In this document: positions 1 through 21,778 of the stretch, piece by piece
Layout: every line of letters begins with the position of its first letter
How positions within the stretch are numbered: position 1 is the stretch's first letter
IMG/VR virus record: IMGVR_UViG_2687453454_000003
Location: 1 to 64,000 of that record
From: a virus
Lineage: Duplodnaviria > Heunggongvirae > Uroviricota > Caudoviricetes
Reading direction: 5' to 3' (one strand)
DNA length: 64,000 nucleotides
Notes under the pieces: model-generated
Told to the model about the DNA's origin: nothing
Database searches by the model: none
The model's input: the letters and a program-made list of their open reading frames with translations, nothing else
Program-made: the position numbers and the translations under genes

Positions 1-282
1 CTACCTTTGCCTCTTGCCGCCATTTAACCGGAAGGCGTTACCGTTCGGTTGCGCTATCCCCATGCGGTGTTGCGTTTCGGTAACAGCTTTATGCAGGTCG
101 CCAAATTCCTCAACCTTCACGGGCGGGCGCTTCACGTTCTCCAGACACGTTTCACGGCGGCGCTTTATCCATTCCCGATCATCGTCCTCGGTGCATAACA
201 GCATGACTTCCATCCATCGTGCGGCAGCTCTCCGGTATAGCCCTTTTGACTCCAGCTCTTCAGCTTTCCTGTCCCTTATCAT
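1..282 (-). CDS. small phage regulatory-type protein, C-terminal end cut by window edge
   Basis: ORF track; motif EELESKGLYRRAA.W near its N-terminus is almost identical to a motif in ORF 56321..56815; adjacent to iteron cluster and AlpA gene. Confidence 0.35.
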   Translation of the reverse strand: MIRDRKAEELESKGLYRRAAARWMEVMLLCTEDDDREWIKRRRETCLENVKRPPVKVEEFGDLHKAVTETQHRMGIAQPNGNAFRLNGGKRQR

Positions 283-317
283 TTCTGCCTCTCAGATTAT
301 ATAGATAAGCAAAAAGG

Positions 318-440
318 TGTTGGTTCAGTTGGTTCAGTTGGTTCAATTTGTAAAGAGTATTGTTTTTAAAAGAATTATTCGCAAAAAGTGAACCAACTCA
401 CCCCATTTTTGAACCAACAAAAAGAGGCCGTGAACCAACA
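318..440. repeat. iteron cluster A: 3 tandem TTGGTTCAG (320-346) plus 3 spaced GAACCAAC (about 389-439)
   Basis: Direct reading of sequence; inverted copy of cluster at 7826..7942. Confidence 0.6.
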
Positions 441-513
441 CGCCGTTTAAAAACCGCTAATTATGAGGGACATCCACCAGCACAGGGCTTGTCTAGTGCT
501 GGTTAGGTGCTGC

Positions 514-732
514 TCACCGCGCACGGAGCGGCGCTGGTTTGCTCCAGCGATATGCGGGGCTGGTCATCATTTCGCGGTACCGCCTGGCTATTACAGGGCC
601 CTCTGCCAGCTGGCGCCTTAATTCCCGCAGTTCTGCCGGGCTGAGCTGGTGGCCGCCATGCTCCAGCTTGGCAATGGTCAGCAGCTCGATTTCTCGTGGT
701 GTCATGGATTCCCCTCTGATGGTGATCGGCAT
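514..732 (-). CDS. hypothetical protein (72 aa)
   Basis: ORF track only; no recognisable motif. Confidence 0.3.
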   Translation of the reverse strand: MPITIRGESMTPREIELLTIAKLEHGGHQLSPAELRELRRQLAEGPVIARRYREMMTSPAYRWSKPAPLRAR

Positions 733-956
733 TATATTGCTAGCCAGGGTGATTCTTCACTGGCCAGAGCCGTTGTGCGTGAAGTCTATGCGTGAACTCC
801 ATATGCTATGTGTTAAGTTACAGCTCAAAATGTCCTGTTCCGGTGGTAACTTTTTGGTAAACAGCGTTTTGGTGGATACCAACATGGATACCTCGCTTTT
901 GGATACCACCCAAAGCCAGATTGTCACTATGCTTAATCTAAAGCAGAGGAGCCTCT

Positions 957-1142
957 ATGCGCCTTATCAAATTAAGCGAAGTCATGCTCAGAACGGGCTT
1001 CAAGAAAACGGCAATCTACTCATGGGTTAAGACGGGCACGTTTCCACAGCCAGTTAAAATTGGTAGATCAGCTAGATGGTCGCTTGAGGAGGTTGAAGCT
1101 TGGATCCAGAACAAACTTGATTCGCGGGCTGGCAACCAATGA
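957..1142 (+). CDS. alpA: AlpA-family phage transcriptional regulator / excisionase-like DNA-binding protein
   Basis: 61 aa; LSEV..RTG.....Y..V..G.FP.PVKIG.R...W...EV..WI pattern typical of AlpA/Vis HTH proteins; paralog of 15197..15394. Confidence 0.7.
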   Translation: MRLIKLSEVMLRTGFKKTAIYSWVKTGTFPQPVKIGRSARWSLEEVEAWIQNKLDSRAGNQ

Positions 1143-1775
1143 TTAGCTTTAATATCGAGTGGTGGATAGTCCATGGACAAGCTGATGGGCGCACTCGACG
1201 AAAACGATGCGCCAGGCGGACTGTGTCGCTCATAAACCGGGAGTTGGCCAGAGGACTTAGTTGTCCTTTGCAATTCTGCAGGTTCGCACGTGAAAGTAGC
1301 CAAAACCCTGCGAACCTGAGTGCAAACCTGCAACTGCGAACCACTGAGGTGGCCTCTCATAGCTGGTGGTCATACTGGATATTAATCAGGCCTGCCACAA
1401 CCATAACAATCCATAACAGACGCATCGCACCAACAATTACTAATAGGTCCGCTCGCAACACTAATTTTGACTAAGCCTGAACGCAATGCTCAGAAAGAAC
1501 GAAGAATGGAATGAATCGTACCATCATGTTGCTCCATGATTTTTACGTTCAAGACAGTTGCTTAATCTCGCCTCGCAATTCAGCCCCCTTGCCGTTATCG
1601 AGAAGTCTTTCTCCTTACGGTTAATGCTATCGGTCTTCATATTACCAGCAGCATACGCCATCCGATTATTTCGATGCTACGCGCGCGTACTTGTCGCAAA
1701 ATACCAGGCAAAGGCCAGATTCAGAACGTCGTGATAACCACCAGTACAACATGAGAGGTCATGTAACGCGATTTA

Positions 1776-2156
1776 TCACACCAGATACATGTGATTGGTG
1801 TACCCGCATAAAACATCGTCATAGCGCGTCCTGTGCGCATATACGCCGATAATCAACACATCACCACCACTCTGTCTCATGTAGAGAACAGTTTTATGGT
1901 ATCCCCCCGCCATCGTGTGCATACTGGTCGGACGTAGTTGCAAAATTTTTTGCAACTGATACCCCTCGCGCGCGTACTTGTCTCGAAATTGGTGTTTTGC
2001 TGTGGCAGTGATATCAGAAAAATCTTCCTGTTTCACATAAAGCGGATATGCGCGTACTGTAACGGCCCCATCAACGGGGATCGGATTTGAAATCCCGACC
2101 CAAGCTATGTACCAAATGCCATGTCTTGGATATATGATGATTGCCATTCTAAACAA
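1776..2156 (-). CDS. hypothetical protein
   Basis: ORF track only; overlaps the start of the opposing membrane-protein ORF. Confidence 0.25.
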   Translation of the reverse strand: MFRMAIIIYPRHGIWYIAWVGISNPIPVDGAVTVRAYPLYVKQEDFSDITATAKHQFRDKYAREGYQLQKILQLRPTSMHTMAGGYHKTVLYMRQSGGDVLIIGVYAHRTRYDDVLCGYTNHMYLV

Positions 2157-2175
2157 AGCTAAAGGGAGGGTTGGT

Positions 2176-2526
2176 GTGAATGCTCAGGCTGTCATCATGG
2201 TTTTCCTTGGTCTGATTGTCGCAAAACTATATCCAGACTGGTGGAAAGGGGCATTAGCAACTGTCGCCATCTATTTGCTTTTATCCGTCGTTAAGCGATC
2301 GTTCGTTAAGACCGTAAATCAAGCAAAACGTTTCTCATTTAAGAATTTAATAAACTATATTACTGGGCTTATTTTTTGCCTTTCAATTTTGATCGCCTCA
2401 GCTTTTTTGCCCGTATCAATAGCTAATTTTTTTGGCGCACCATATGAGGTAGGTTATCTATTCTCTGTTTTTTGTCTTGTTCTTTCCCTTCTTTACCTAT
2501 GGATGAGAGCAAAGAACAAAAATTAG
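2176..2526 (+). CDS. small multi-pass membrane protein
   Basis: GTG start at 2176 preceded by AAGGGAGGG Shine-Dalgarno; hydrophobic stretches consistent with 3-4 TM helices; lies directly after the gp16-like gene. Confidence 0.4.
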   Translation: MNAQAVIMVFLGLIVAKLYPDWWKGALATVAIYLLLSVVKRSFVKTVNQAKRFSFKNLINYITGLIFCLSILIASAFLPVSIANFFGAPYEVGYLFSVFCLVLSLLYLWMRAKNKN

Positions 2527-2544
2527 CCATCCATGGCTAACCAG

Positions 2545-4649
2545 TTATTGAGCTTCTTTTTGTGATGCCTGTGCGACTCTGGTGAGCGATTGTGTGACCG
2601 TACTGATCGCTCTGTCATATGCTGTGCTACCTTTTGGCGTATTTGCCAGACGTAACAAGGCATTTCGTATAACAGGGCTTTCGTATGCCTTCGCTGCTCC
2701 GCCTACGGCACCAGCAGCAGGAACAACAAACGCAGCCGTTTTTAGCATCCCCGCTAATACTGCTGCGTTTATGATGCCACCACCAACTAACAATCCATAA
2801 AGCTGCTGACCATTTAAGTTTTGAACGTTCGCTTTTGCCGCGTGTCTTGTATCGTTGAGGTATTTAATAACGCCGTCCAGTTCCTTTCCATGTACGCCTT
2901 TAAAGAAAGTTGCTGATTGCTTCCTGTTCCGGTGTAACGCATTAATAAACTTCTCAACACTGATATTTCCAGACGGATCAGTCGCCTTATCTACAGCATT
3001 CTGAACTATGGCTGCTCGTGCGTTTTGCCTACCATTGTCATCCAGAAGCCTGTAAAGCTGAGAACGTTCTGATGGGCTTTGGCTAAAAACGAGTTTTGTT
3101 ACATCCTCAGGCGTGGCCTTGCCGCTGGCTATTGCCTTTTGAACGCGCGTTCTTCCCATCATGTCATTGAATTTAGACCATGAGCGATCAACCCTTGCCA
3201 TATTAATGGCTTCGTCTGCTCCAAGATTTTTGGCTACGGCTTTTTTCATATCCGCCGTATATGCCTTGTAGATAATATCGCTGGCTTTCTGGAGCGTATC
3301 TTTATCAACAGTGTCAGATGACGCCATAAATCGCTTTCGAAGATCGGTTCTGTTTTCCCTCGCCAGACGCAGGTCATTTGGTCCGCTGGTGATATCGTCT
3401 TTAAATTGCTGCAAGACTTTTACCGCGGCTCTATCCTGAGATTTGCCCGGGCGGCTTAACACGGCAATCTGATTGTCGATAGCTTTTACCGTGTTTGAGA
3501 GATCGACAGGGGTATCCCCCATAGCGTCAATTATGCGGTTATATCGCTTTCCTGCTGCCTCAATGAATTTTTGTTGCCCTTTAGTCGCAGATTCATAAAG
3601 CTGTTTATCAGAAATGCCACCCAGACCATCGCTAAATGTTCTGACTAAATTTTCTCGTGCTTGTTGTTGATTCAGCCGATTCTTACCGGTTCCAAAAAAA
3701 GAACTCTTTCGCCTAATGTCTGAGCCTGACTCTGCATAAAGGTTTTATCTTTCAGCATGTCACTGGTCATTAACGGCAGATTTCTTTCCGATGCAAAGTC
3801 GACAGCAGCCTTTGCTTCAGGCGACATATCACCACGAACAGCCCTCGAAACCGCACTCGCTGTATTTTCCAGCCCCTTACCAATACCACCAATGCCAGCA
3901 GAAATTACCGTTTGTAACGGATCAATATCTTCTCCACCAGCAAGGCTGGTGGCTCCCTGTAGTGCTAAATCTGTAGCTGCTGATTTTCCTATGGCACCAA
4001 GCACCGTTCCAGCCCTGCCCACTGGTGTAAACGCCAACGCATTAGCAAGAAACGAAGTCAGGTCTTGCGGTGATAAACCCGGCTTGTTCAGGGCATAATC
4101 ACCTGATGGCAGAGAAACGATAGTATTCCCCTTCTCATCCTGCCTTAATGTCGCCCCCATTCCCTGAAGAATCTTTTCCTGAGACGCGTCAGAGCCGAAA
4201 AGTTGAGACCATCCAGCCTTTAGGGCATCCATGCTTAGTGAGTTCAATTCTGGGGCAGAGGTGACATTTTGCAGTCTCTCCATCTCTGGAGTCATTCGGC
4301 TTTCGCCTGTTATAGCATCGCGCATCGCAGCCCCAAGACTGGCTCCCTGTTCTGCTGAACGCTCAAGCCCCTCTCTTTGCTGAGTAGCTAACTTTGCATA
4401 CCCTGACGCAAGAGAATTATCAGATGATGTATGTTGAATATTTTGAGTTGCTGATTGGGATCGGTCTATTTCATTCGTTGATGGTAGTGGATAGGCAGCA
4501 TAAAAAGCCTGCTTAGCCTGCTCTACACTTTCTCCGGCTTGCGGGGCAACGACTTCATTGAAGTATTGCTCCTGAGCCTGCGCTTTTTGTTCTGGTGCTA
4601 ACGCCTGATACTGTGGAGAGGCGATAACATCTTTCCATGCTTTAGCCAT
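2545..4649 (-). pseudogene. P22 gp16-like ejection protein, reading frame broken at an A7/T7 run (3694-3700)
   Basis: Two 325-aa ORFs (2545..3522, 3672..4649); the downstream frame stays open and protein-like upstream through the run (..RRKSSFFGTGKNRLNQQQ..), so one indel joins them into about 700 aa. Confidence 0.5.
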
Positions 4650-6070
4650 TAATCACCCCATAGTGAAGAAAAGTTACTGCTGGCTGCTGGCTGTGATACC
4701 TGCTCAGATTGCGGCAATGTCTGCGACGAAGAAGAAGTTCCTCTGTCAACTGCTGAAATAACCCGCAAAGCATCATAAGCTCGACCAGAAGCAGCTTTCA
4801 GCGAATTGAACTGGTTTTCCATCTTCCGGCGCTTGGTATCAATGGTTTTTGTGGAGTCGCCAGGCTGAGGGAAATACATTTGATAATATTTTGACATTTC
4901 AGCAGGTGCGATAGCTGCCCCTGTTTCCTGACGGAGTATTGCCATTATTGCGTCATTAGCATTAACAACGTATTGCTGCTCTGTTGGGCTGAGCGTTAAG
5001 TTAGCCAGCGTCCCATTACCCAAAGCATTATTAATGATCGCCACTCGCTGTGGGCTAAGCTGGTCTTTCAGTGTATCTATTGAATCAAGAGCATCCCTAA
5101 CCCTGTATGCAAATCCAGCAGCTTTTTTAGCCCCTTCTGGCGACTTTTCCATGATCTTTTGGGCTGTTGGCAAAGCTATTGGACGAAACCCATCTCCAGA
5201 TATTGGCTGGTTTAGTTTTCCCTGCTCTTCACTTCCGTCTGTGTAGTATTTTGTGACAGTGCCATCATCGTTTTCTCTAACACTCATTAATTTTTTGGCG
5301 TTTGTATTAATTCCAGCCGCTGCCGCAAATGCCGCCGCCCCCTCTGGATCCGCCTTTAACATTTGAGCGTACTGATTGTAATTCTGCATTGCTGCTGTTG
5401 GTGCATATGCTGACGTTAACGCATTTGCTCGGCTAATATCCTGCCCTCTCGCCTGAAGTGCTTCGCCAGCCTGATTGCTGCGGATTGTCTCTGCCAACTT
5501 GCCACGCTCAATATCCCGACCTTCCATTTGATCTTTGATATCGAAATACTTCTCATGACCGAGAGAAAACAGTGCCATACTACCAGCAAGCCGCTGGAAT
5601 CCCTGTGGATCATTAACATGCATTTCGGCAACAGACTCAGGAGAAATTCCCAAGCGACGCATTTCATCTTCGTTATCTGCTATGAATTTTCCAAATGCCC
5701 CAGTTCCGAGCGAAGATGCGATTTGAGCACTAGTCGCAAGATGACCAATAGAATTTCTCTGGTCGTCATCAATAAAGCCCATCCCTTTCTGAACGCTTTC
5801 AAATTCTTCTGGATACTCAGAAATAAGACTGCGCATTTTGTTTCTGTCTCCAGACTCAAAAGCCCCGGCATATGCTTTCTGAAACTCTGCTTTACGCTGT
5901 TGTTGACGTGCCTGCTGATTAATCTCAGCAACGCCTCTTAGCCCCTGTAGCGCCATTAAACCTACGTTTGGGTGCTGCTGATACTGCACAGGCTGAGGAA
6001 CGGAAGAACGAGGAGCATTATCATTTTGCGGTGCCATGCTAGGCAGCCCGCCAAGTTGCCATGTCGCCAT
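4649..6070 (-). CDS. P22 gp20-like ejection protein
   Basis: 473 aa (P22 gp20 is about 471 aa) and position between gp7-like and gp16-like genes; assignment from recollection. Confidence 0.5.
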   Translation of the reverse strand: MATWQLGGLPSMAPQNDNAPRSSVPQPVQYQQHPNVGLMALQGLRGVAEINQQARQQQRKAEFQKAYAGAFESGDRNKMRSLISEYPEEFESVQKGMGFIDDDQRNSIGHLATSAQIASSLGTGAFGKFIADNEDEMRRLGISPESVAEMHVNDPQGFQRLAGSMALFSLGHEKYFDIKDQMEGRDIERGKLAETIRSNQAGEALQARGQDISRANALTSAYAPTAAMQNYNQYAQMLKADPEGAAAFAAAAGINTNAKKLMSVRENDDGTVTKYYTDGSEEQGKLNQPISGDGFRPIALPTAQKIMEKSPEGAKKAAGFAYRVRDALDSIDTLKDQLSPQRVAIINNALGNGTLANLTLSPTEQQYVVNANDAIMAILRQETGAAIAPAEMSKYYQMYFPQPGDSTKTIDTKRRKMENQFNSLKAASGRAYDALRVISAVDRGTSSSSQTLPQSEQVSQPAASSNFSSLWGD

Positions 6071-6747
6071 TAGAATCCAAGCCCCCCAACAAGACCAATA
6101 AGCCCACCACCAATAGCCCCGGCGACATTACCTATACCCGGAACAACGGAACCAAGTTGCGCACCCGCTAAAGCGCCTGATGCCGCCCCACCAATACCAC
6201 GCGCAAGACTGGATGGCTGCTGCGCCTGACCTGCACGAATAGCGCCAAGCCCCTGCAAGAGTTGCCCGGTATTATTGGCGTAGTTTTGCCCTGCTGTTGC
6301 CTGCCCTGATGCCGCATTCATCCCGACATTTAGCAGGTTTCCATAATTTTGCATTTGCCCACTGAGCCAATTGTTATAAAGCATGGGCGCAATGGAAGAT
6401 AACTGGTTACTGGTAGCTGTTGAGCCAAGCCCCCCGGTAGCTTCTGCTGAGACAAGGTTCTGATAACGGGCCTGATCTGCCTGTGTTTTATATAAACCAG
6501 AACCAAAGAAATCATTCGCGGCTTTATTCTGCCCTTCCAGAGTCATCAGTCCTTGCAGTTGTTGTAAAGCAGGCAATCCGACTTCTGCATACGGCTTGAG
6601 ATTATTCATCACCGTATTCCACTGCTCGCGCTGCAAATCAATTGCCTGCTGCTGGGCCTTCGCCTGAGCTTTAGAGGCACCACCATCACCGCCTTTTTCG
6701 TATACGGCACGATTGAGATGTTTATGAGCTATATGGGTAATTAACAT
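6070..6747 (-). CDS. P22 gp7-like ejection protein
   Basis: 225 aa (P22 gp7 is about 229 aa); Gln/Ala/Gly-rich with glycine-rich hydrophobic C-terminus; gene order 14-7-20-16 as in P22. Confidence 0.5.
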   Translation of the reverse strand: MLITHIAHKHLNRAVYEKGGDGGASKAQAKAQQQAIDLQREQWNTVMNNLKPYAEVGLPALQQLQGLMTLEGQNKAANDFFGSGLYKTQADQARYQNLVSAEATGGLGSTATSNQLSSIAPMLYNNWLSGQMQNYGNLLNVGMNAASGQATAGQNYANNTGQLLQGLGAIRAGQAQQPSSLARGIGGAASGALAGAQLGSVVPGIGNVAGAIGGGLIGLVGGLGF

Positions 6748-7202
6748 TCGCTGAATTCCTTATATTGTTGCCGAGTTAACTGATAAAGCGTTACGCCGAC
6801 GGGTTTACCACATCTGATATAAGCATCATCAAGGTGACCAACACGGGTAGCGCCAAGCAAACGGATAATTGCCCGTCCATATTTCGTGGTGTCAGGAACC
6901 ATAGTGATGCTGTTAAGGAATGGTGAGTTTTCGAGAAGCCATTTGCAGAATAATCGATGCCCTTGCAGTGCATATTCACCACGGAATCCGGGGTCGTACA
7001 CCGCATGGCATTCAACAACGCTATGCCAGAAGTTACGCACTTCATGAACGCCAGCCAGCACTAATCCTTCGTAGATGCCGAGATATACCGCATCAGGCTT
7101 GATGTAGTACGTGTGCCCCGGCTCAACAATATTTTCGGTATTGCCTGGCTCGTTAAGAAAGGCCTGTAATCGCACAGGGTTATCAATAAATTTTAGTTCC
7201 AT
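6741..7202 (-). CDS. P22 gp14-like protein
   Basis: 153 aa ORF heading the ejection cassette; assignment by position. Confidence 0.4.
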   Translation of the reverse strand: MELKFIDNPVRLQAFLNEPGNTENIVEPGHTYYIKPDAVYLGIYEGLVLAGVHEVRNFWHSVVECHAVYDPGFRGEYALQGHRLFCKWLLENSPFLNSITMVPDTTKYGRAIIRLLGATRVGHLDDAYIRCGKPVGVTLYQLTRQQYKEFSEC

Positions 7203-7218
7203 GCGATGCCATCCATTT

Positions 7219-7380
7219 TCACATACAGCCTGCCAGCGCCTTATCTATTAACCCTCGTGCAATTTCATGCAGAGTTGGCGCTACTCCAATTCCTGATTTT
7301 TTACGCTGCTCTTCCTGAATTTTCTTTATCGCTTCCATTTGCTTCTCACTTATCAATACTGGCTTTACTGAAATAGCCAT
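7219..7380 (-). CDS. small protein (53 aa), possible small regulator
   Basis: Translates to MAISVKPVLISEKQMEAIKKIQEEQRKKSGIGVAPTLHEIARGLIDKALAGCM; AAGGGGG Shine-Dalgarno; LexA-box-like site just upstream; below the 60-aa track cutoff. Confidence 0.35.
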   Translation of the reverse strand: MAISVKPVLISEKQMEAIKKIQEEQRKKSGIGVAPTLHEIARGLIDKALAGCM

Positions 7381-7395
7381 AACGCCCCCTTATAA

Positions 7396-7411
7396 CTGTA
7401 TAAAACAACAG
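7396..7411. promoter_or_regulatory. LexA (SOS) box-like palindrome CTGT-ATAAAACA-ACAG
   Basis: Matches CTGT-N8-ACAG with AT-rich spacer, 16 nt upstream of the ATG at 7380. Confidence 0.4.
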
Positions 7412-7825
7412 TTATTATAGTTTCACAAATCGCAATATTCATCATCGTAATTGCAGAATATGAAACAAATAGCACAAAAAAATGCCACCGCTCAGTAGCT
7501 GGTGGCGTCGTTCTGTGTGTCAGGTTTTGACAGGTTTTTTATGGACTCTAAAAACTATATTTATGGTGTCGCATTACTCTTCACGGCAGGCGCTTTTCAG
7601 TTCTGCCCTTGCTTCTGGCTCCATTGGTAATTTGATTCGCGATCAGCTATGCGGATGGTTTGCTGAACAGGCATAACAACTTCTCAGAGGCTGTTTTTTG
7701 AACTACGAAAATTTCGTAGTGCTCACTTTCAAAAACGTCACGCCCTTGTACACAGGATTTTACGAAAGTCTCGTAAAACACTCTCTGATGCCAGCCAGGT
7801 GTTGTGCGCATCAATTCAGTCACAT

Positions 7826-7942
7826 TGTGTTGGTTCAAAATACCGTGTTGTTGGTTCAGTGTTGGTTCAATAAAAAGAATAAAATCCTTATAAAACAATA
7901 CCCTTTACAAATTGAACCAACTGAACCAACTGAACCAACACC
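7826..7942. repeat. iteron cluster B (putative origin): 3 spaced TTGGTTCA (7829-7870) plus 3 tandem GAACCAAC (7914-7940)
   Basis: Direct reading; immediately downstream of the primase gene, as P4 ori is downstream of alpha. Confidence 0.6.
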
Positions 7943-7964
7943 TTTTCTACGCACATGAAGAAGC

Positions 7965-10724
7965 TCATTCTTCAGATGAGTTATAATCTCCTGGCTGGTA
8001 ATTGAGTACATAAACGTTTATTTGTCGTCCCTGAATACGTGGTGATTTTCTTTGGTATCCACGACCGCTGTTTGGTGGGGTTAGCATCCCGGCTTTTTTC
8101 AACACTTCAGCAAACTGTTTTGCGTTGAAACCACATGCGATCTCCTTTTCAAATGTGGCCGGGAATGTGTAGAAAATCATTGGGCTTTCGTCATGTTCTC
8201 CACGCTGACGGTATCCGGCTAAATCTTTGATGGGCAAATCTGCCGGGCTGTATGGAAATGGTGCAAAACGGCTAAGCCCATAGGCATTAAGAAATGCCTC
8301 CGTTTGTTCAATAATCTGCTGATGTTCTTTGTTACCTGTGCCGAACTCGCGCAACCATGCGTTATAGCTGTGCTGTATCGCATCACGGCATGTCTGAGCA
8401 TCCCAGCCTGTTACAACCTCGCCTAACAGCAATGCGGCCTCCAGAATGGCAAATCGCGCGGCTACACGGTGAACCTGCTCACCATAATCGGATGGGATCA
8501 GGTTTCTCCATCTGCTTTCGCAATCACGAACGGTTTTAATAGCCTGTTGCTGGTGGTCTGCCAGCCATTTAATCCACTCACGCCCGGCTGCGCCGTGGTG
8601 ATGCTGGTAAGCGTCTTTCAGTGCGTCTGCGTGCTGTTTTCCGTTCTGGTAATCGTGAAAGCGTACTGCTTTACTCAACGGAATATTCAGCAGTCGCACC
8701 AGTTGCCCGGCTTTGGTTTTTCGCCCGGAAGTAGCGATAAATGTTTCTAAATCCATTTCTCCGGTGCTGATTGCCACTGTACGCCAGCGTTTTAGATCCC
8801 GGTTTCCACCATCTTTAGCGCCTTGCAGTTTCCCTACACCGTTAAATAACGCATAGGCAGACTGTGAAACGCTGACAGGATCAGCGCCCTGACCAACTTC
8901 ATCAAGCGGCATTAGTCCGTCATTGTGGGCGGCGGCCTCATTTGCCAGCCCCAGCGCGGTTCCGTACCACGTCAGCCGCAGTAAATCAGGGTTGCCGTAT
9001 AAGCTGCTCGCCACGTTTGCCGTGGTGGTCTTACCTGCGCTCGACTGCTCATAGAAATGAATGCCGAACCCGTCAGCGCCCACCAGCCCAATCAATGGCG
9101 CTGCCAGTGCTGCGCCGATCCCGGTCATCATTGAATAGTTACCAAAGGCCAGACGCGCCACGTTATCACGCCAGCTTTTCGCGCTCCCTGAGACGGTATA
9201 TCCGGCTGCGGCTGAGCTTCTCCCGCTGAACAGCACAGGATTTTCAGGTGTTCCGATGATTTCCCCATCAGGCATGATGTACGCTCCGCATTGCCATCCA
9301 GTGGCATGAGCAACACGCCACAATTCACGAGAGCCACTGCGTTGTAGCCAGTCTGCCAGTATTGCTCTGAGGCTGCTTTTGGTCGTGACATTTACCCCAC
9401 CAGCTTTAAGTGTGCGCCATCCTTCACGTTCACCAATATCAGCCAGTGGAATGGCAGCGGTTGTCGGCGTTTCAGAACCAAACGACAGCCAGCGAAGAAT
9501 GAGATACTGGTCTTTATCGTCTCTGCCAGTACCGATAACGCTTAACGGAGAACATAACCAGCTTTCGTTATTGATGATTTCTCCACTCTGGCTGTCAGCT
9601 CTCGGAGATACCCAATAAATACCATCCTCGCGGCTTTCTATTCTTGGTTTCAGTGGGTCGGTATCCATAACCTTAAAATCGCTTCCCTCAATGGTCTGTG
9701 GCTCCTGTTTCACGCCATTACCCTGTGGTTGGTACATTGACTTATTGAACGCTTCTGTGGCGCATTTAATGCCGTGTTTTTGGTGGTAATCATTCCAGTC
9801 TGCTTTGTGATCTGTCGGGGGTAATGCCACCCATCCAGAAACAGATAAAGCTGCTTTTTCTGCTGCTATTCTCCCCGTGTTTTGTCTTCCTTCGCTGTGG
9901 TCGTTATCCGCAGCAATGATGATTTGTGCTGAAGGAAATTTATCCCGCAGTACCTGGGCGACATATAACAGGTTCCCGGCATCAATCGCCGCCACTGTCA
10001 GCGCCTCTGGACGAATTAAATGGGCAGATAATGCCGTTGCCAGCCCTTCTGCGATTAAGATGCTCTGTGTTGTTTCTGGCGCGTTTATGGCGTGATATGC
10101 CCCCCGCTTTGCTGAACCTGTCAGGAGTCTTTTTTCACCATGTGATGTAATAGTCTGTGCTGCTGTGACTGCGCCGGATTTATCCACCAGCGCCAGCAAC
10201 AGAGATCCATCGGGCAACACGGGGAATGTAAAATCACCTACCCCTTTCGCAACCAGATAATCAGATTTGCCGTTTACAGCCTTTCTGCGCATGTCATCAA
10301 ACTGACGGGAAAACGTATCCCGTCTTTGTTGTTCGTCCTTCTCTGCCCTTTTCAGGCGCTCCTGTTCGCGTCGCTGGCGCTCGGTTTCCAGTTGTTCCCG
10401 TTTCTGGCTGGTGGCTTCTGGTGTTTCCGTTGTCCGGTAATCAATACCCAGAACATCAGCGGCAAGAAGCGCCGCCTCTGTTGTGTCGCAGTTATTTACG
10501 CGTTTAATTAAATCCAGCCCATCACCAGCGCCGCACTGATTACAGATGAAGCTACCGCGCCCGTTGTCATCGAACCGGAATCGATCTTTGCCCCCACATG
10601 CAGGGCAGGGAGCATGACGGCGCGGAGAGTCAGGGACATTTATGTTCAGGCAGCCCAGCACATGAGGCCAGTTGTTTTCAGACGCACTGATAACCTGACG
10701 GATAAGATCAATGTTTCGCATCAC
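7965..10724 (-). CDS. P4 alpha-like primase-helicase
   Basis: 919 aa; N-terminal zinc-binding CPACGG..FRFDD...FICNQCG; Walker A-like SSAGKTT and Walker B-like LMPLDEVGQ. Confidence 0.85.
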   Translation of the reverse strand: MMRNIDLIRQVISASENNWPHVLGCLNINVPDSPRRHAPCPACGGKDRFRFDDNGRGSFICNQCGAGDGLDLIKRVNNCDTTEAALLAADVLGIDYRTTETPEATSQKREQLETERQRREQERLKRAEKDEQQRRDTFSRQFDDMRRKAVNGKSDYLVAKGVGDFTFPVLPDGSLLLALVDKSGAVTAAQTITSHGEKRLLTGSAKRGAYHAINAPETTQSILIAEGLATALSAHLIRPEALTVAAIDAGNLLYVAQVLRDKFPSAQIIIAADNDHSEGRQNTGRIAAEKAALSVSGWVALPPTDHKADWNDYHQKHGIKCATEAFNKSMYQPQGNGVKQEPQTIEGSDFKVMDTDPLKPRIESREDGIYWVSPRADSQSGEIINNESWLCSPLSVIGTGRDDKDQYLILRWLSFGSETPTTAAIPLADIGEREGWRTLKAGGVNVTTKSSLRAILADWLQRSGSRELWRVAHATGWQCGAYIMPDGEIIGTPENPVLFSGRSSAAAGYTVSGSAKSWRDNVARLAFGNYSMMTGIGAALAAPLIGLVGADGFGIHFYEQSSAGKTTTANVASSLYGNPDLLRLTWYGTALGLANEAAAHNDGLMPLDEVGQGADPVSVSQSAYALFNGVGKLQGAKDGGNRDLKRWRTVAISTGEMDLETFIATSGRKTKAGQLVRLLNIPLSKAVRFHDYQNGKQHADALKDAYQHHHGAAGREWIKWLADHQQQAIKTVRDCESRWRNLIPSDYGEQVHRVAARFAILEAALLLGEVVTGWDAQTCRDAIQHSYNAWLREFGTGNKEHQQIIEQTEAFLNAYGLSRFAPFPYSPADLPIKDLAGYRQRGEHDESPMIFYTFPATFEKEIACGFNAKQFAEVLKKAGMLTPPNSGRGYQRKSPRIQGRQINVYVLNYQPGDYNSSEE

Positions 10725-11079
10725 CGTACCCCATGTGGTCTATAGCGTTTGCGATATGGCTAACCAGCATCTGCCACTTGGTTATTCCGTAATCAGTCAG
10801 CATGCCATCATTGTTTAGCCACATATCAAATTCAGCGGTTGTCGCAAGTTTCCACTTATCGCCGTGGACAGTCCTCATTGCTGGGTACATGAATGCGCAA
10901 ATCAGATCACAAACATCTGACGGCTTCAGAGATGTAGTAATGGTGCGTCCCTCTGGCGTCTGAATTGCCATTTTCTCTTCACCAGTAGAATGAAGGTTAT
11001 GAATCCACACAGCACCAGCAATCTTTGCCACCTGCTCTCCGATTGCGGAGCTAAGCGCCATTTCTGCATTTTCACGCAT
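10708..11079 (-). CDS. hypothetical protein
   Basis: ORF track; part of a tightly packed minus-strand operon upstream of the primase. Confidence 0.4.
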   Translation of the reverse strand: MRENAEMALSSAIGEQVAKIAGAVWIHNLHSTGEEKMAIQTPEGRTITTSLKPSDVCDLICAFMYPAMRTVHGDKWKLATTAEFDMWLNNDGMLTDYGITKWQMLVSHIANAIDHMGYGDAKH

Positions 11080-11413
11080 GAGAACCTCCCGCTACAGTTG
11101 CGCCCATGTCATTAACCATGCTTTGCCATATCTCACGCCCGACGTCAGTCAATCCGTCCTTAGTGACGCAACGCTCAAGAAGCTCGATCCCCACGGTTTC
11201 CCACTGCGGGTAGAACACTTTCATGGCTGCCAGTGTGTAGCTATCGATCAGGCTGCGAACGCCTTTTACTCCATTAACGATTTCCACACGTACGGCCTCG
11301 CCGTCCGCATCAACCATGAAATAGTCCCCGCCGCTGGTGGAGGTAATGTGGTTATACAGTGCCGACGCATACTTATTTGCCAGCGCATTCAGTCGGAAAT
11401 TTTTAGTAATCAT
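11072..11413 (-). CDS. hypothetical protein
   Basis: ORF track; operon context. Confidence 0.4.
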   Translation of the reverse strand: MITKNFRLNALANKYASALYNHITSTSGGDYFMVDADGEAVRVEIVNGVKGVRSLIDSYTLAAMKVFYPQWETVGIELLERCVTKDGLTDVGREIWQSMVNDMGATVAGGSHA

Positions 11414-11423
11414 GGCTCCATCC

Positions 11424-12026
11424 TCAGTGCGTCACTGGTTCCGCTGGCATGCCGTTTTCATTCAGTTCAGCTATAAAGCTGTTGTGAAGTTCAGCAAGCG
11501 TTTCACGACCAAATGGAGTCAGTGCTCCTTGTTCCACATCCATCATGGCTCTGTAGAAAATGATGGCGCGTTCTGTGCCAGACTCGATGCCAAAACGTTC
11601 TATCATCGCTCCCTCAATGTTGTTTGCCATAGCGAGGCGCTCTGCTACTGGATACAGCGGCATGGCGACGATGCCGTTGGAATAAACAGCCACTTCGGAA
11701 GGATTGCCAGTATCATCAATGATGCTGACAGTGCCGTTTTCCTCTCTCATTTCCAGCATGAATACTGTTGCGATCAGCCATCTCCACATAATGACGTTAT
11801 GCTGTGATGTGTAATCGAAATATCCCTGGTTGCCGCCATCGGCAATAGCGAGATGTATTGACATACCTTCATCTGGTTTATCGTCATAATCCCCGGCATC
11901 CAGACGATTTACGGCATCAATATATGAGACGGCCTCAACGCGTTCTGTCATGCCATCGTTGCTGCGGTACATGATGTTTACGCCGTCAGGCGTTGCTTCT
12001 GTATGGAAAGTTAAGAAATTATTCAT
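11424..12026 (-). CDS. hypothetical protein (start trimmed to internal Met)
   Basis: ORF 11424..12131; internal start MNNFLTFHTE avoids overlap with the upstream gene. Confidence 0.35.
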   Translation of the reverse strand: MNNFLTFHTEATPDGVNIMYRSNDGMTERVEAVSYIDAVNRLDAGDYDDKPDEGMSIHLAIADGGNQGYFDYTSQHNVIMWRWLIATVFMLEMREENGTVSIIDDTGNPSEVAVYSNGIVAMPLYPVAERLAMANNIEGAMIERFGIESGTERAIIFYRAMMDVEQGALTPFGRETLAELHNSFIAELNENGMPAEPVTH

Positions 12027-12240
12027 GTTTCGCCTCGCCTGAATGATTCTGTAACTCATATTTGCCCAACAATTCGTCCGCTTCCTGAATAGCTTCTGGT
12101 ACGCCATTGAGCAGTGACATAACCGCGCCAATCATTAACTTGTCTCTGTTGCTGGGGCTGGCCCCTTCAAGCCAGAACCCTAAAACAGTCTGAACCTGTT
12201 CGATGCGACATTGCGCTTCAATGAGCTGGATGTTGGTCAT
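12019..12240 (-). CDS. hypothetical small protein
   Basis: ORF track. Confidence 0.35.
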   Translation of the reverse strand: MTNIQLIEAQCRIEQVQTVLGFWLEGASPSNRDKLMIGAVMSLLNGVPEAIQEADELLGKYELQNHSGEAKHE

Positions 12241-12500
12241 TTCGCACTCTCCACATCGATTAAACCGATATCTATCAGGGAGGTAACTTTTTGTAGCCAG
12301 CTATTGATTACTGTCGCCTGTTCCCCGCCCACCGAGGGAACAATCTCATTCATCACATGAACCAGACCTGTGCGCGCTCTGGTAAGCCGTTCAGTCGCGC
12401 AATCTGCGGGAGTGAATGTGTCTGGATATGGCTCTTCACGCCCCAGCAATGATTCAATTTCCAGCTCACACGGATGACGATAAATTAAGTTGATATTCAT
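12237..12500 (-). CDS. hypothetical small protein
   Basis: ORF track; start/stop overlaps with neighbours. Confidence 0.4.
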   Translation of the reverse strand: MNINLIYRHPCELEIESLLGREEPYPDTFTPADCATERLTRARTGLVHVMNEIVPSVGGEQATVINSWLQKVTSLIDIGLIDVESAK

Positions 12501-12691
12501 TTTTCACCCCCAAGAATTACCAGCTCGGCACGGGCATCGTTAACCAAAGATGAGCACGCTTTAATCGCATCCACGACATCAGTAGCGTCCATTTCTTCAG
12601 CCGAAAGACTGACAGCAACCAGGACAGCCGCTGCTTGCTCGATTAATTGAAGTGCGGACGTAAGGCGAGGGGTATTAATTGAGTTATTCAT
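12497..12691 (-). CDS. hypothetical small protein
   Basis: ORF 12497..12748 trimmed to internal Met. Confidence 0.35.
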   Translation of the reverse strand: MNNSINTPRLTSALQLIEQAAAVLVAVSLSAEEMDATDVVDAIKACSSLVNDARAELVILGGEK

Positions 12692-12902
12692 TGGTTGCCC
12701 CCGTTTTTCCTGGCATTTCGCCACCTTCCAGCAGGAAATGAACGTCACGAACGGCGAGATCCAATATCGCGAGTAACGCCTTCAGTCTTTCGTCTCGTGA
12801 GGGAGAGTTGCTCACCAGAATGTCGTTAATCACTTCTGTCAGTGTGATGATCTGGCTTGTGCGTTCGAGGGGATCCATATGCACATCGTAGGTTTTAATC
12901 AT
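12684..12902 (-). CDS. hypothetical small protein (72 aa)
   Basis: C-terminal part of the 355-aa six-frame ORF; ATG at 12902 overlaps the stop of the upstream 64-aa gene. Confidence 0.35.
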   Translation of the reverse strand: MIKTYDVHMDPLERTSQIITLTEVINDILVSNSPSRDERLKALLAILDLAVRDVHFLLEGGEMPGKTGATNE

Positions 12903-13089
12903 GTGCCACCTCCATGCGGATACGACCAGCAAAAAAGCAGATGTGATCGCGCACCAGAGAACGGCGAGCATCGCGTTCAGACTCGGCAGCAATATGATGA
13001 ATTTTGGCGGTAATTGTCGGGCAATCGCGGCGAACTGCGGCGATAATCCAGATAAATTGCGGTTTTTGGGTAGGGGTAGTAGCCAGCAT
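12895..13089 (-). CDS. hypothetical small protein (64 aa)
   Basis: ATG at 13089 preceded by AGGAGG (13097-13102) with 7-nt spacing. Confidence 0.4.
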   Translation of the reverse strand: MLATTPTQKPQFIWIIAAVRRDCPTITAKIHHIAAESERDARRSLVRDHICFFAGRIRMEVAHD

Positions 13090-13291
13090 GTGGCAGCCTC
13101 CTTGTACTGGGAGTTCTTCCCACCACCGGAGCTGCGAAACTCGCTGGTGGTGGACTGAACAGAGTTCGCAGTACCGGCGTACAAGGAAACCGGCCAGCCT
13201 TTCGGCTGCCCTGTCCAGCCCACCATAATTTTGCAAGCGACGCGGATTATAACCGCATCACTGAAAAAAGTGTGAGTCTGGCTAACGGCAC

Positions 13292-13313
13292 AAAAAAAGA
13301 CGCTCGGCGCGTC
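13292..13313 (-). terminator. intrinsic terminator-like hairpin GACGC-GCCGA-GCGTC followed by T7
   Basis: Minus-strand stem-loop followed by seven U; sits in the leader upstream of the small-gene operon. Confidence 0.4.
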
Positions 13314-13744
13314 ATGTGTCGCCTCGTACATTTCCGGGCTGCGAAACCCGGCACCCGTTTTATGAGGTGCCTTATAACCATAAACCGTGTTGCCGCATAA
13401 CGGCAAGCTCTTTTTTATGGACTCCGAAAACTCACTATTGGAAGCACCAGATGCACAATACATCGCGCTCATTTCGTTAACGTCGCGCGTGTGGACGAAG
13501 GTTTTTGTGGAGTCACTACGCGAGCAGAGAAAGCCATCTACGACCAGAAATTCTCTGGCGCAGCCGCCGACCTTCTCAACGCTAACACCATCGACCGTAA
13601 TTTCTGACATAGTTAAGGCATCCGCTCCCACCACCAGAAAATGATAAACTTTGCTTGTATCTGCTGTATTAATGCCAGACTTTGCTGTCATATTGCTGGA
13701 TTTTGGCGACATACCAGCCAGTGAAAATATCTTCTTCTGGACGG

Positions 13745-13927
13745 TTAGCATTTGTTAACCTCCGCGAACTCCTTCATGAAGCGCGCCAGCGGTTGTACGC
13801 ATGGCGATTGATACCCGTCGCGATAAAACGTCACTCGGTTGTGAGACACGCTTTCGACAGTAACGAGTGCTCCGTGGGCATCCTTGTAGCGTTTTTGAGG
13901 TTGTGGTGTTCCTGTCGGCTTAAACAT
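13745..13927 (-). CDS. hypothetical small protein
   Basis: ORF 13745..14014 trimmed to Met at 13927, which overlaps the stop of the antirepressor gene. Confidence 0.3.
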   Translation of the reverse strand: MFKPTGTPQPQKRYKDAHGALVTVESVSHNRVTFYRDGYQSPCVQPLARFMKEFAEVNKC

Positions 13928-14753
13928 GGACCACCTCCAGACGCTTAGCGAGCCAGCGTTGCGACAGGCGGGTGAGTTCTCCTTTGCGCTGCTCATATTC
14001 CATGCCCATATCAATTAACGTGATATTGGTGCTTTCGAGATATGAGAGGTGCTCAAGTTGTTCTGCGTTCATATGGTCGCGAGGTTCGCCAGAATAGCCA
14101 TTTATCCGCGCCCACTGCTTAGCAGTTAGCCCACCAAGAACGATACGAGAAATCATATTGCTCTCGTTTGTGTAGTGGTGTTGCTGCGTCGTTTTCCCCT
14201 GCTCGGCACGGGCCATATTCAGCGCATCGCACATTGGCTTAAAGTTGTTTGCGGCACTGATACGGGCTTTTAGCTGGCGACGATAGCGGGCGGCGATTTC
14301 AGGAACGCTACGCTGTAATTCTTCCTCGCACTGGATGAAATAACGGCGGATAGCGCGACCCTGATCATTGCGTTCGATCATTGCCAGTTCTTTCGCCATT
14401 CCGACACTTAACAGATAGTCTTTGCCGGGTCTGCCAGACTGCTTAATCTTTCTGTAAGCCGCGCCATTCGGGCTTTTCCCCAAATTTGGGGAAATAGTTT
14501 TATGGACTGAGTAATCGTGCCCAATGGTGAAGTCATATTCAGAGATGCGATCAGTGATCCATGTAGAGAAGTCTTTTCCCACGCCCAACGCTTTGTGTAA
14601 CGCTTTTGCGCTAACAATATTGGTTTCACGCCCACCGATATGACCAGGAATAACCGGGACAATTGCGGCAAATTCATTACCGTTAATTGTGCTCAGAGAG
14701 GCGTTCAGATGAGGGGCGGCCTCAGAAATTAATCTGCTTTTTTCGATGTTCAT
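13920..14753 (-). CDS. phage antirepressor (Rha/AntA-type N-terminal domain)
   Basis: 277 aa; KALHKALGVGKDFSTWITDRISEYDFTIGHDY matches the DNA-binding domain pattern of Rha/Ant antirepressors. Confidence 0.6.
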   Translation of the reverse strand: MNIEKSRLISEAAPHLNASLSTINGNEFAAIVPVIPGHIGGRETNIVSAKALHKALGVGKDFSTWITDRISEYDFTIGHDYSVHKTISPNLGKSPNGAAYRKIKQSGRPGKDYLLSVGMAKELAMIERNDQGRAIRRYFIQCEEELQRSVPEIAARYRRQLKARISAANNFKPMCDALNMARAEQGKTTQQHHYTNESNMISRIVLGGLTAKQWARINGYSGEPRDHMNAEQLEHLSYLESTNITLIDMGMEYEQRKGELTRLSQRWLAKRLEVVHV

Positions 14754-14765
14754 TTTCAGTCTCCG

Positions 14766-15197
14766 TTAAGCGGCGTTAAACGCGTCCGGGTAGAGTTTCA
14801 GAATGTCGGCAATTTCCTGCTGAGAAAGTCCGTTGTGATCATTTATGTTCGCAAGATGGTTAATATGAGTGATCACTTTCAGAACATCACCACGGCAGGA
14901 GAAACGGTAGCGAAGGTGTGTTCCGATACCATCAGGATTCTTTTCGTCGATACGCTCCAGAGTGATTCCAAGCTGGCGTTCTAACTCTGTTGCATAGTTA
15001 CGACCAGAAGACAGACGGCAGTAGCGAAGAATGTCATTTTCTGTCCATCCCTCTATACCAGTACGCAGCATATAGACTCTGGCACGATGCTTTTTCGGTG
15101 TGCGCTTTGGTGCTTGAAGGGATTTTGTAAGGGGCGTAACATCAGATACGCGAATATCTGAATTAGCCGCCTGTAATGGGCGGTTTTTCTTATTCAT
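14766..15197 (-). CDS. hypothetical protein (143 aa)
   Basis: ORF track; immediately downstream of alpA. Confidence 0.4.
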   Translation of the reverse strand: MNKKNRPLQAANSDIRVSDVTPLTKSLQAPKRTPKKHRARVYMLRTGIEGWTENDILRYCRLSSGRNYATELERQLGITLERIDEKNPDGIGTHLRYRFSCRGDVLKVITHINHLANINDHNGLSQQEIADILKLYPDAFNAA

Positions 15198-15394
15198 TAC
15201 GCTACCTCGCCACGCGACTCAGCGATGCGCTGATTAATCCATTCTTCAATTTCACTTTCAATAAACGCAATTGATCGGCTTCCAATCTTTACAGATTGAG
15301 GGAATCGCTGTTCTTTGATGAGCCGATAAATCCACGCTTTGCTGTAACCAGTACGGCGTTGAACCTCAGAAAGACGAATAAATGATTGAGACAT
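15197..15394 (-). CDS. alpA: AlpA-family phage transcriptional regulator
   Basis: 65 aa; LSEV.RRTGYSK.WIYRLIK...FP..VKIG.RS..F...E...WI pattern. Confidence 0.7.
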   Translation of the reverse strand: MSQSFIRLSEVQRRTGYSKAWIYRLIKEQRFPQSVKIGSRSIAFIESEIEEWINQRIAESRGEVA

Positions 15395-16473: not shown

Positions 16474-16615
16474 ACGCCACCCCGCGCCCCTAATTCTGAC
16501 GGCTATGCCAGCCCGTAGGGGTGTACGGGTTTTCGGGGATCAGCCTAGACATAGCCTATTCTTTGTTCGTCTACATAAGTCTACTACCATTGCTTAACAC
16601 GGTCTATTCATACAG

Positions 16616-17830
16616 TTAAGCTCGTTTCCCAAACGAACCATGAACAACGTTCTCCTCCTTCTCCAGCGCATCCATATAGTCGGCATACCATTGAAGCATC
16701 TCCCGCCTTCCATCCAGATATTGCGCATGGTTGTATGTGCCACGAATTGAGTTCTTATCAACGTGAGCGAGCTGCGTTTCTATCCACGCGGTGTTATAGC
16801 CCTGCTCATGCAAAATCGTGCTCATAGTGTGCCGGAACCCATGACCAGTTACACGTCCAGCGTAGCCAATGCGCTTAAACACTTGGTTTATGCTGGCCTC
16901 ACTCATTGTTTTCCTTGGATCATTGCGCCCGGGAAACATAAGAGGGTAATTGCCTGTTATTTCTCTAATCTTCCCAATAAGCGAAAGAGCCTGATCAGAC
17001 AATGGCACAATATGAGGCCGCCGCATTTTCATACGTGAAGCGGGTATCTCCCAGATAGCCTTGTTGAAATCAATTTCATCCCATAATGCGCCACGTAGTT
17101 CGCCAGTCCGCAAGCCGGTGATAATCAGTAGACGAGCCGCCATAACAACCAATGCGCTTCCTGAGTAACTGGACAATGCCTTGAAAAAATCAGGTAATTC
17201 TTTAGCTGTAAGGAAAGGGTAATGATTAGATTCATGGCCTTGCATCGCGCTAGTAAGGTCTGGTGCAGGGTTATACTCTGCGCGACCAGTGACTATTGCA
17301 TAGCGGAAAACTTCCCCGCACCGCTGCCTCACTTTTTTGGCTTTTTCTGTAGCACCGCGCCCCTCGATGCGCCGCAGCACATTCAGAAGTTCAAGTGGTT
17401 TGATTTCGGCGATTGGTTTTTTGCCAATGTAAGGGAACACATCTTTGTTGAAGGCTTCGAGGATGTCTGAAGCATAACCAGCAGACCATTTTTTTAATTT
17501 GCTGCTGTGCCACTCAAGGGCAATATCTTTGAAGGTGTTGTTTAACTGCGTTTCCCGGGCAATCTTTTCCTCTCGTTTCGCTTCCATCGGATCGATACCA
17601 CCAGCGATACCTCTTTTCGCATCTTCACGTTTTGCCCGAGCATCGGCTAGAGTAACCTCAGGATACACACCTAGTGCCAATAGCTTCTCTTTACCAGCTA
17701 CACGATATTTAAGTCGCCAGTATTTACCTCCATTAGGTTTTACCAAGAGATACAAACCGCCACCATCGGCCAGCTTGTAAGCCTTCTCTTTTGGCTTGGC
17801 TGTGTCTATTTGACGGGCATTGAGTTTCAC
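16616..17830 (-). CDS. int: tyrosine integrase, P4 family
   Basis: 404 aa; N-terminal arm-binding pattern (AKPKEKAYKLADGGGLYLLVKP.G.KYWRLKYR) and C-terminal catalytic region with GHGFRHT and YNHAQYLD.RR. Confidence 0.9.
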   Translation of the reverse strand: MKLNARQIDTAKPKEKAYKLADGGGLYLLVKPNGGKYWRLKYRVAGKEKLLALGVYPEVTLADARAKREDAKRGIAGGIDPMEAKREEKIARETQLNNTFKDIALEWHSSKLKKWSAGYASDILEAFNKDVFPYIGKKPIAEIKPLELLNVLRRIEGRGATEKAKKVRQRCGEVFRYAIVTGRAEYNPAPDLTSAMQGHESNHYPFLTAKELPDFFKALSSYSGSALVVMAARLLIITGLRTGELRGALWDEIDFNKAIWEIPASRMKMRRPHIVPLSDQALSLIGKIREITGNYPLMFPGRNDPRKTMSEASINQVFKRIGYAGRVTGHGFRHTMSTILHEQGYNTAWIETQLAHVDKNSIRGTYNHAQYLDGRREMLQWYADYMDALEKEENVVHGSFGKRA

Positions 17831-17902
17831 TTGGGGGTACCTCCACTAAACCGAACAGCAAATACCCCCATAAGTACCCCCATCTGACCGTAGATTTTGA
17901 GG

Positions 17903-17978
17903 GACTTTAGTAGACGTCAAAAGACGAACGGGGCTTTAATACACGGATTATAAGGGGTTTTGAAAGACTTTAGTAGAC
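17903..17978. promoter_or_regulatory. two direct GACTTTAGTAGAC repeats (17903-17915, 17966-17978), putative integrase arm-type sites
   Basis: Direct reading; lie between int and the att core; inverted GTCTAC copies at 16569-16588 on the other side of int. Confidence 0.3.
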
Positions 17979-18000
17979 TTGGGGAGATGTTTGAATGGTG

Positions 18001-18048
18001 CCGATAATAGGAGTCGAACCTACGACCTTCGCATTACGAATTATAAGA
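18001..18048 (-). other. 46-bp att core: 3' portion (positions 31-76) of tRNA-Thr(CGU), not a complete tRNA
   Basis: Minus strand reads ATTCGTAATGCGAAGGTCGTAGGTTCGACTCCTATTATCGGCACCA: anticodon loop with CGT, T-arm GTAGG/TTCGACT/CCTAT, acceptor 3' strand and CCA; flanking sequence cannot form the 5' half. Confidence 0.7.
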
Positions 18049-21716: not shown

Positions 21717-21778
21717 GATTTTGACGCTCCTCTTGCTATCGACAATAAACCTTTGTATGCATCAACTAGATTTATTGT

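Follow-up and report, generated by a model that had tools for sequence, protein, structure and literature searches.

The first 18 kb of the DNA analysed here, a stretch of 64,000 nucleotides referred to as the window (positions 1 to 64,000 of IMG/VR record IMGVR_UViG_2687453454_000003, Caudoviricetes), make up a chromosomal island that is present in hundreds of E. coli genomes. Read along the minus strand, the island carries genes for an integrase, a helix-turn-helix protein, the antA/B antirepressor, ash and small open reading frames (ORFs), followed by the gene of a 919-aa primase-helicase (7965-10724) and a cluster of iterons termed unit B. Beyond unit B lie a small ORF with homologues of the P22-type proteins gp14, gp7, gp20 and gp16 (7380-2545), a block of plus-strand genes (719-2526), a second iteron cluster termed unit A, and perC (282-1). 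Judged by its sequence, the island is a phage-inducible chromosomal island (PICI) of the EcCIMP1 family: it is 98.4-99.0% identical in nucleotide sequence to EcCIMP1 over window positions 1-2101, 5910-15388 and 16640-18041, the PerC and AlpA_1 protein accessions are identical in the two islands, and the gene set of the family (int, alpA, antirepressor, ash, primase, DNA-transfer proteins, alpA_1 and perC) is matched. This widespread lineage of Enterobacterales PICIs was found in at least 362 of 5426 complete E. coli genomes. The two iteron clusters probably represent the halves of a mirror-image double replication origin between which an accessory module has been placed.

Units A and B are composed of a single 9-mer, GTTGGTTCA, of which the window holds 12 exact copies on both strands taken together, all of them inside the two clusters. 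Shuffling gives an expectation of 0.63 +/- 0.80 copies with a maximum of 3, and none of 100 shuffles reached 12. Unit A, the distal unit (319..439), comprises three tandem GTTGGTTCA on the plus strand that start at 319, 328 and 337 and span 319-345, an AT-rich spacer of 43 nt (346-388) and three spaced copies on the minus strand, read as TGAACCAAC, which start at 389, 410 and 431 with a spacing of 21 nt. Its tandem side faces perC, the start codon of which is 36 nt away. The proximal unit B (7829..7939) occupies the canonical position of a PICI origin and consists of three spaced GTTGGTTCA (plus strand, starting at 7829, 7850 and 7861 with spacings of 21 and 11), a spacer of 43 nt (7870-7912) and three tandem TGAACCAAC on the minus strand (starting at 7913, 7922 and 7931; array 7913-7939). 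The spacers of A and B are 79% and 81% A+T, respectively, against 53.6% for the whole island. The tandem side of unit B lies 25 nt past the stop codon of the primase-helicase, in agreement with the preliminary description of this stretch, which had placed the cluster directly downstream of the primase.

That description had also recognised the clusters as mirror-image iteron arrays. Both are of the same specificity, and their reverse-complement relation does reach past the short repeat unit. A repeat search delimits a long inverted repeat with arms at 312..376 and 7882..7946 that are 65 nt long and 92% complementary, and when B is reverse-complemented and aligned with A, gaps being allowed, all six iterons fall in register while the DNA between them has diverged. 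The exact inverted core reported earlier is real, but not at its stated length of 45 bp: the longest exact match is 44 nt (312-355 and 7903-7946), the string quoted for it has 40 nt, and the first A of that string is unmatched in B. Similarly, three tandem plus three spaced iterons are found in both units as claimed, but the internal architecture is not the same throughout, the distances between spaced iterons being 21/21 in A and 21/11 in B. An Rfam search found no RNA family at either cluster.

The published PICI origin consists of two oppositely oriented sets of iterons around an AT-rich region immediately 3' of rep, and a single unit, adjoining rep, is described in both reports (Fillol-Salom et al. 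2018, PMC6092414; Qiao et al. 2022, PMC9371898). The PICI Rep is a self-loading AAA+ helicase that reads the iterons through a C-terminal winged helix and presumably loads a hexamer on either side (PMC6092414; PMC9371898; PMC7581432). Like this origin and that of the Staphylococcus aureus pathogenicity islands (SaPIs), units A and B each have three iterons per side, in opposite orientation, around an AT-rich spacer. Unit B agrees with the PICI/SaPI origin in every sequence-level feature including its position next to the rep stop codon, whereas unit A departs from it in position alone, lying 7.5 kb from rep and upstream of perC. The island further differs in having two complete mirror-image units, the second of which stands beyond an accessory module, 7.4 kb from rep. 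The SaPI/PICI replication origin is reportedly also the subject of work by Ubeda and colleagues from 2007. The searchable literature, which is incomplete, yielded no report of a PICI origin doubled in mirror image, whether compact or split by cargo.

The likely reader of the iterons is the primase-helicase, a pri-rep fusion (7965..10724, minus strand) with a Zn-ribbon, a Toprim primase domain, a DUF927 AAA+ helicase and a C-terminal domain of ~80 residues (Pfam; classed as DNA primase by PHROG). The primase domain (aa 8-362) aligns with the alpha protein of P4 (33% identity, E = 2e-41) and there is no alignment over the helicase part, which is of the DUF927 type and matches PDB entry 8tch, annotated as 'Pathogenicity island protein'. 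The replicase is thus P4-like in its primase domain and not in its helicase, which is of the kind found in SaPI Rep; DUF927 has been tied to SaPIbov1 Rep (PMC7581432). Specificity was compared in an alignment of 42 primases, including 27 that accompany TGAACCAAC-type and four that accompany GAGACAAC-type iterons. All 27 of the former carry GRG[YF]QRKS-PRI at residues 888-897, whereas the four GAGACAAC-type primases read QGRV--RE at this motif, though they are ~80% identical overall and 98-100% identical in much of the helicase core. Merely five columns of the 919 aa are group-specific, and four of these are located at 892-897. In the window the co-varying motif is QRKSPRI (aa 891-897), encoded at 8034..8054 on the minus strand. 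A one-base change of the iteron to GAACCGAC is accompanied by QRKT, and further iteron words accompany further variants; the family has eight iteron words, and both halves of any one element carry the identical word. An AlphaFold model of residues 739-919 (mean predicted local distance difference test score, pLDDT, 72) shows a beta-alpha-alpha-beta-beta domain with the motif in its strand/hairpin part. The protein is predicted to bind the iterons, a C-terminal motif of six residues being the candidate determinant of specificity.

Repeated words downstream of the primase gene were mapped at 77 loci that encode relatives of the primase-helicase in species-representative (GTDB) genomes. A homologue of unit B follows the primase gene in about 60 relatives. 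At most of the mapped loci both clusters lie side by side within 300 bp after the stop codon, beginning with the tandem array and continuing with the AT-rich spacer, the spaced array, a short gap with a conserved CTGGCTGG, the second spaced array, a spacer and the second tandem array. This arrangement amounts to a palindromic compact double origin of ~280 bp directly after the rep gene. The loci with the TGAACCAAC word comprise 16 compact doubles, 11 that are split by 0.16-8.8 kb around unrelated cargo, 12 single units and five that are not assignable, and IMG/VR contigs contribute a further 37 compact and two split loci. Second halves are of two kinds, type 1 with a GC-rich spacer and type 2, a true inverted copy with an AT-rich spacer. 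All displaced units, that of the window included, are of type 2, and unit A is homologous to the type 2 second half of the compact double origins at loci L035 and L049 as well as to the distal units of 10 split loci.

In 14 of 14 aligned loci the A unit matches the reverse complement of B, with the tandem sides outward and the spaced sides toward the cargo. A-type units keep the 21/21 spacing and a motif, CTTTACAAATTGAACC, across genera and B-type units the 21/11 spacing; since the hallmarks of each type are conserved in this way, A is an old partner of B and not a recent copy. Pairwise identity of A units across genera is 88-89% in the iteron columns, 62% in the other columns of the unit and 35% in the flanks, and the corresponding values for B units are 95%, 56% and 42%. 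On the primase tree the split and compact states are interleaved, which points to frequent rearrangement: the window is sister to the compact locus L003, and L012 and L045, which belong to one species and are split and compact, respectively, are sisters as well. At the Yersinia pekkanenii locus L033, a segment made up of the last ~75 primase codons and the double origin is present in three direct copies (7956-8716, 12462-13298 and 13660-14509), one of which sits 4.5 kb upstream of the 3' end of the primase gene.

The interpretation favoured here is that A and B are a mirror-image double PICI origin that has been split by the accessory module. That A could be a second cis-replication region had been raised from the first inspection of the sequence and is the best-supported reading, unit A being homologous to the second half of the double origin that abuts B in relatives. 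It is proposed that the primase-helicase reads the iterons through its C-terminal domain, and that it would assemble on both sides of the AT-rich spacer, melt the spacer and prime synthesis, as described for PICI Reps. In the common layout of the family the two units abut after rep; in this lineage, and repeatedly in others, an accessory module lies between them, so that B stays at the rep gene and A is found 7.4 kb away, directly upstream of perC. Unit A would then be a still-functional Rep-binding unit and most likely a second initiation site, at which Rep would bind, melt the spacer and fire, firing at A being less certain than the overall picture. Modular recombination in the gap between two units, each sufficient by itself, has probably produced the split, which would be tolerated rather than adaptive.

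A number of observations weigh against a split double origin with an active unit A. Among the 39 relatives in which the arrangement can be determined, 12 have no second unit within at least 9 kb, and the second unit is thus probably not essential for replication. In many compact double origins the second half is of type 1 and, with its GC-rich spacer, has no melting region, so that an adjacent second half may be no more than an auxiliary binding array. Three E. coli islands at the yicC/dinD site (L083, L204 and L206) have a DUF5906 replicase and yet keep an intact TGAACCAAC A-type unit upstream of perC, and a cognate primase for that unit is not detectable in the genome; a remnant island in an O111:NM strain (L205) likewise retains an A-type unit. 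Given such orphan units and the single-unit relatives, intact iterons alone are no proof of current use, and a second unit is probably dispensable for replication. As for the initiator, its motif is encoded ~100 bp from unit B, and physical linkage therefore contributes to the association of motif and iteron and could explain part of their co-variation. All loci split in the kilobase range belong to the lineage with the one iteron word TGAACCAAC, the lone exception among split loci being L041 at 0.44 kb, so that the co-variation covers proximal units and, among distal ones, that of L041 alone. Finally, the pLDDT of the C-terminal model is modest at the value given above, and its one fold match in the PDB, a winged-helix oriT-binding protein, is too weak (E = 0.19) to be used as strong evidence.

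Alternatively, unit A may bind the primase-helicase without firing and act at a distance as an auxiliary site, which is considered somewhat unlikely. Such a site could be an enhancer or looping partner of B in the manner of P4 crr and R6K gamma, a titrating or handcuffing site similar to plasmid inc loci, or an operator through which the promoters of perC and alpA_1 would respond to Rep occupancy. The second half of many compact relatives, with a GC-rich spacer that is unlikely to melt, suggests such a role for the second array, and the mirror orientation is kept in all split loci. An auxiliary site would also suit the short distance between the tandem iterons of A and the perC start codon, and perC adjoins an origin unit in most relatives. 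A perfect TATAAT is present at 296-301 on the reverse strand, which is that of perC, 18 nt beyond the last tandem iteron of A; it is without a recognisable -35 element and may be a candidate Rep- or activator-dependent promoter of perC. The sequence TTATATAT is conserved after A-type units in other genera. A scan of positions 1-1200 and 7200-8100 for consensus sigma-70 promoters found none, the lone TATAAT having been picked out by eye, and this negative result at A speaks against an auxiliary role. Moreover, every distal unit keeps its AT-rich spacer and two-sided iteron layout, which a pure binding array would not need.

The auxiliary role draws on comparison with satellite P4, which resembles the island in its host range and satellite lifestyle. 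P4 carries the same iteron in two cis regions, ori and crr, which are 4.5 kb apart and one of which lies just after the primase-helicase gene, and its alpha protein has a homologous N-terminal Zn-ribbon/Toprim primase domain. The P4 helicase is of the D5/SF3 type, in contrast to the DUF927 helicase of the island. Further, crr is built of two direct repeats of 120 bp, and type-2 repeats are additionally present in ori; the units described here are, by contrast, near-identical mirror images. In P4 the alpha gene lies between ori and crr, whereas both units of the island are downstream of rep. The statement that unit B follows the primase as the P4 ori does was mistaken, since according to the GenBank annotation it is crr that follows the alpha gene, and ori lies ~4.5 kb off on its other side. 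P4 crr is essential, whereas 12 relatives of the island lack a second unit within 9 kb, which also weighs against an auxiliary role. The island is not assigned to the P4 ori/crr family, as helicase, repeat architecture and gene order all differ and the primase domain is the one homologous part. By comparison with the known systems, the element is classed as a member of the PICI/SaPI kind of origin, and its likeness to P4 ori/crr as one of analogy.

Distant initiator-binding arrays are also known from iteron plasmids, in which they act by looping or handcuffing, examples being R6K gamma with the alpha and beta origins, incA of P1 and incC of F. These have in common with the island that repeats bound by the initiator occur outside the primary origin, and they offer a possible model for communication between A and B. 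They differ in that their arrays are partial and no complete origin unit, and in that their initiators are of the RepA/pi type and not helicases. In an extended and more speculative scheme, which is considered unlikely, the primase-helicase assembly on A would touch that on B, with the 7.4-kb cargo looped out between them. One Rep-dependent switch would then set initiation, the expression of perC and alpA_1 and the copy number of the virion-protein genes, and the units would serve in addition as recombination borders for swaps of cargo and replicase.

Unit A could also be a functionless leftover of an ancestral double origin, or of the origin of another island, that was carried along with perC by modular recombination and has not yet decayed. 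The orphan A-type units described above, which accompany a non-cognate DUF5906 replicase or sit in a remnant island, are what such a history would leave behind, and the unit in L204 has lost one tandem iteron; the single-unit relatives and the frequent rearrangement indicated by the primase tree are consistent with it as well. Decay is difficult to reconcile with the contrast between the iteron columns of A and its flanks across genera, and with the retention of the 21/21 and 9/9 spacings and the spacer motif, which are hard to explain without selection. The separate conservation of A-type and B-type features also means that A is no recent copy of B. A leftover is regarded as very unlikely.

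The possibility that the inverted repeats bound a mobile or invertible cassette, with a 7.4-kb module that flips or transposes, has nothing but the geometry of 65-nt inverted arms around a gene module in its favour and is practically negligible, since a synthetic inverted junction (window 1-376 joined to the reverse complement of 7400-7881), searched against the 5426 complete E. coli genomes, was covered in one piece in none of the 655 genomes that matched the query, and since Pfam and PHROG reveal no invertase, transposase or integrase in the module. No recombinase was found beside the repeats and no direct repeat outside the inverted arms, the flanks beyond the arms are unrelated, and relatives have the two units directly adjoining, without any intervening module. 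The invertible segment proposed in the preliminary description is accordingly abandoned, as are a Hin/Gin/Cin-type element or shufflon (no recombinase and no inverted junction) and a composite transposon or module bounded by insertion sequences (no transposase, unrelated outer flanks, and arms that abut in relatives). The proposal of a recombined segment does not hold as such and survives in the loose sense that modules between and beside the units are exchanged among islands.

The accessory module between the units of the window (2545..7380, minus strand; Pfam, PHROG) comprises the small ORF (7219-7380) and genes for P22-like gp14/DUF2824 (6741-7202), gp7 (6070-6747), gp20 (4649-6070) and a gp16-like ejection or injection protein (2545-4649). 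The last of these is split into two ORFs of 325 aa by a 1-nt deletion in an A7G(G) run at about position 3701 and is a single coding sequence of 701 aa in NZ_CP067399; it is thus either a true pseudogene or an artefact of sequencing through the homopolymer. The oppositely oriented block (719..2526, plus strand) contains a hypothetical gene (719-1030), alpA_1 (957-1142), an ORF (1139-1474) and a second hypothetical gene (2107-2526). On the far side of unit A, and reading away from it, the perC-family regulator (1..282, minus strand) encodes a protein identical to EcCIMP1_025 (WP_000617443.1). EcCIMP1 is a PICI mobilised by the P22-like phage Kapi1, and the report on it describes alpA_1; its text contains neither 'iteron' nor 'ori', and no origin is described in it (Pick, Stadel & Raivio 2025, PMC11773190). 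EcCIMP1 has the same two origin units, 8.4 kb apart, and thus shares gene order and split-origin geometry with the island of the window, which differs in its gp20 and gp16-like genes, in its variable region and in the further prophage DNA alongside.

The DNA between the units varies among relatives. Within E. coli, the split is retained by islands at three integration sites, the cargo of which differs, an Abi protein for example taking the place of the alpA_1 block. The interval holds genes for SSB, ProQ/FinO, an SLT transglycosylase and Fic in Rosenbergiella, a baseplate hub and gpV spike in Serratia, a P4 Beta-family protein in Cedecea and tape-measure-like proteins in Pantoea and Leclercia, and the shortest splits contain a PemK toxin or a Tlde1-domain protein. 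The perC gene, which is outside the pair of units in the window, is inside it in Lonsdalea, Pantoea and Chimaeribacter. A comparison of window positions 2545-7380 with loci L034, L020, L025, L054 and L019 indicates that the cargo after the origin looks matched to the morphotype of the helper, with P22 gp14/7/20/16 in E. coli, hub and gpV in Serratia, and tape-measure-like or SLT proteins in Pantoea, Leclercia and Rosenbergiella. This suggests that proteins for ejection or penetration are provided by the PICI lineage itself.

PICIs and other satellites are partly defined by a 'conserved replication origin organization' beside rep. In the present lineage, which is not a new class of element, the origin would usually be a mirror-image double unit, the halves of which can be kilobases apart with a whole accessory region of helper-matched DNA-delivery proteins, toxins and defence genes between them, and the specificity of the initiator would map to a candidate motif of six residues. 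For the annotation of satellite origins this means that a solitary iteron array with no rep gene nearby can be half an origin. The arrangement also bears on how satellites exchange cargo and replicases, and it raises the question of whether two-origin or looped architectures like that of P4 ori/crr are more general among them.

The CTGGCTGG motif, which reads CCAGCCAG on the strand of the window, is found at 7791..7798 on the strand of the primase (minus), ~30 nt outside the spaced array of unit B, and nearly all relatives conserve it at about this distance from that array. CTG is a DnaG-type priming signal, and CTGGCTGG, with its two CTG triplets, may be a candidate priming site. The DUF5906 replicase islands have their own CTGTACCA-type iterons in two clusters ~1 kb apart with two small genes between them, and in L083 the motif also follows both iteron clusters of this unrelated replicon. 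In these sister islands the replicase cassette has apparently been swapped at the boundary of unit B and CTGGCTGG. A terminator-like hairpin with a T-run is located at 7484-7499 (minus strand), past unit B and ahead of the small ORF with which the operon of ejection genes begins, so that transcription of the replication operon may stop just after the origin.

In the core of the island, Rfam matches on the minus strand comprise a C4 antisense RNA (81 bits, 13143-13230), isrK (69 bits, 13293-13370) and the int-alpA RNA (47 bits, 16488-16555), and these were the only matches of the search. The three RNAs adjoin the antA/B genes and, in sister islands, Icd-like genes; the antA/B and C4 region is a P1-type c4/icd/ant immunity module within a PICI. 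The tRNA gene thrW (tRNA-Thr) adjoins the integrase in other strains, and no tRNA gene that could provide an attachment site is found anywhere in the window. Past the island integrase, the stretch from ~18400 to 29000 (traced through positions 38465-49001 of L001) contains a hypothetical gene of 3.2 kb, a degenerate integrase and lambdoid tail-fibre, Lom and gpJ genes, and represents further prophage material.

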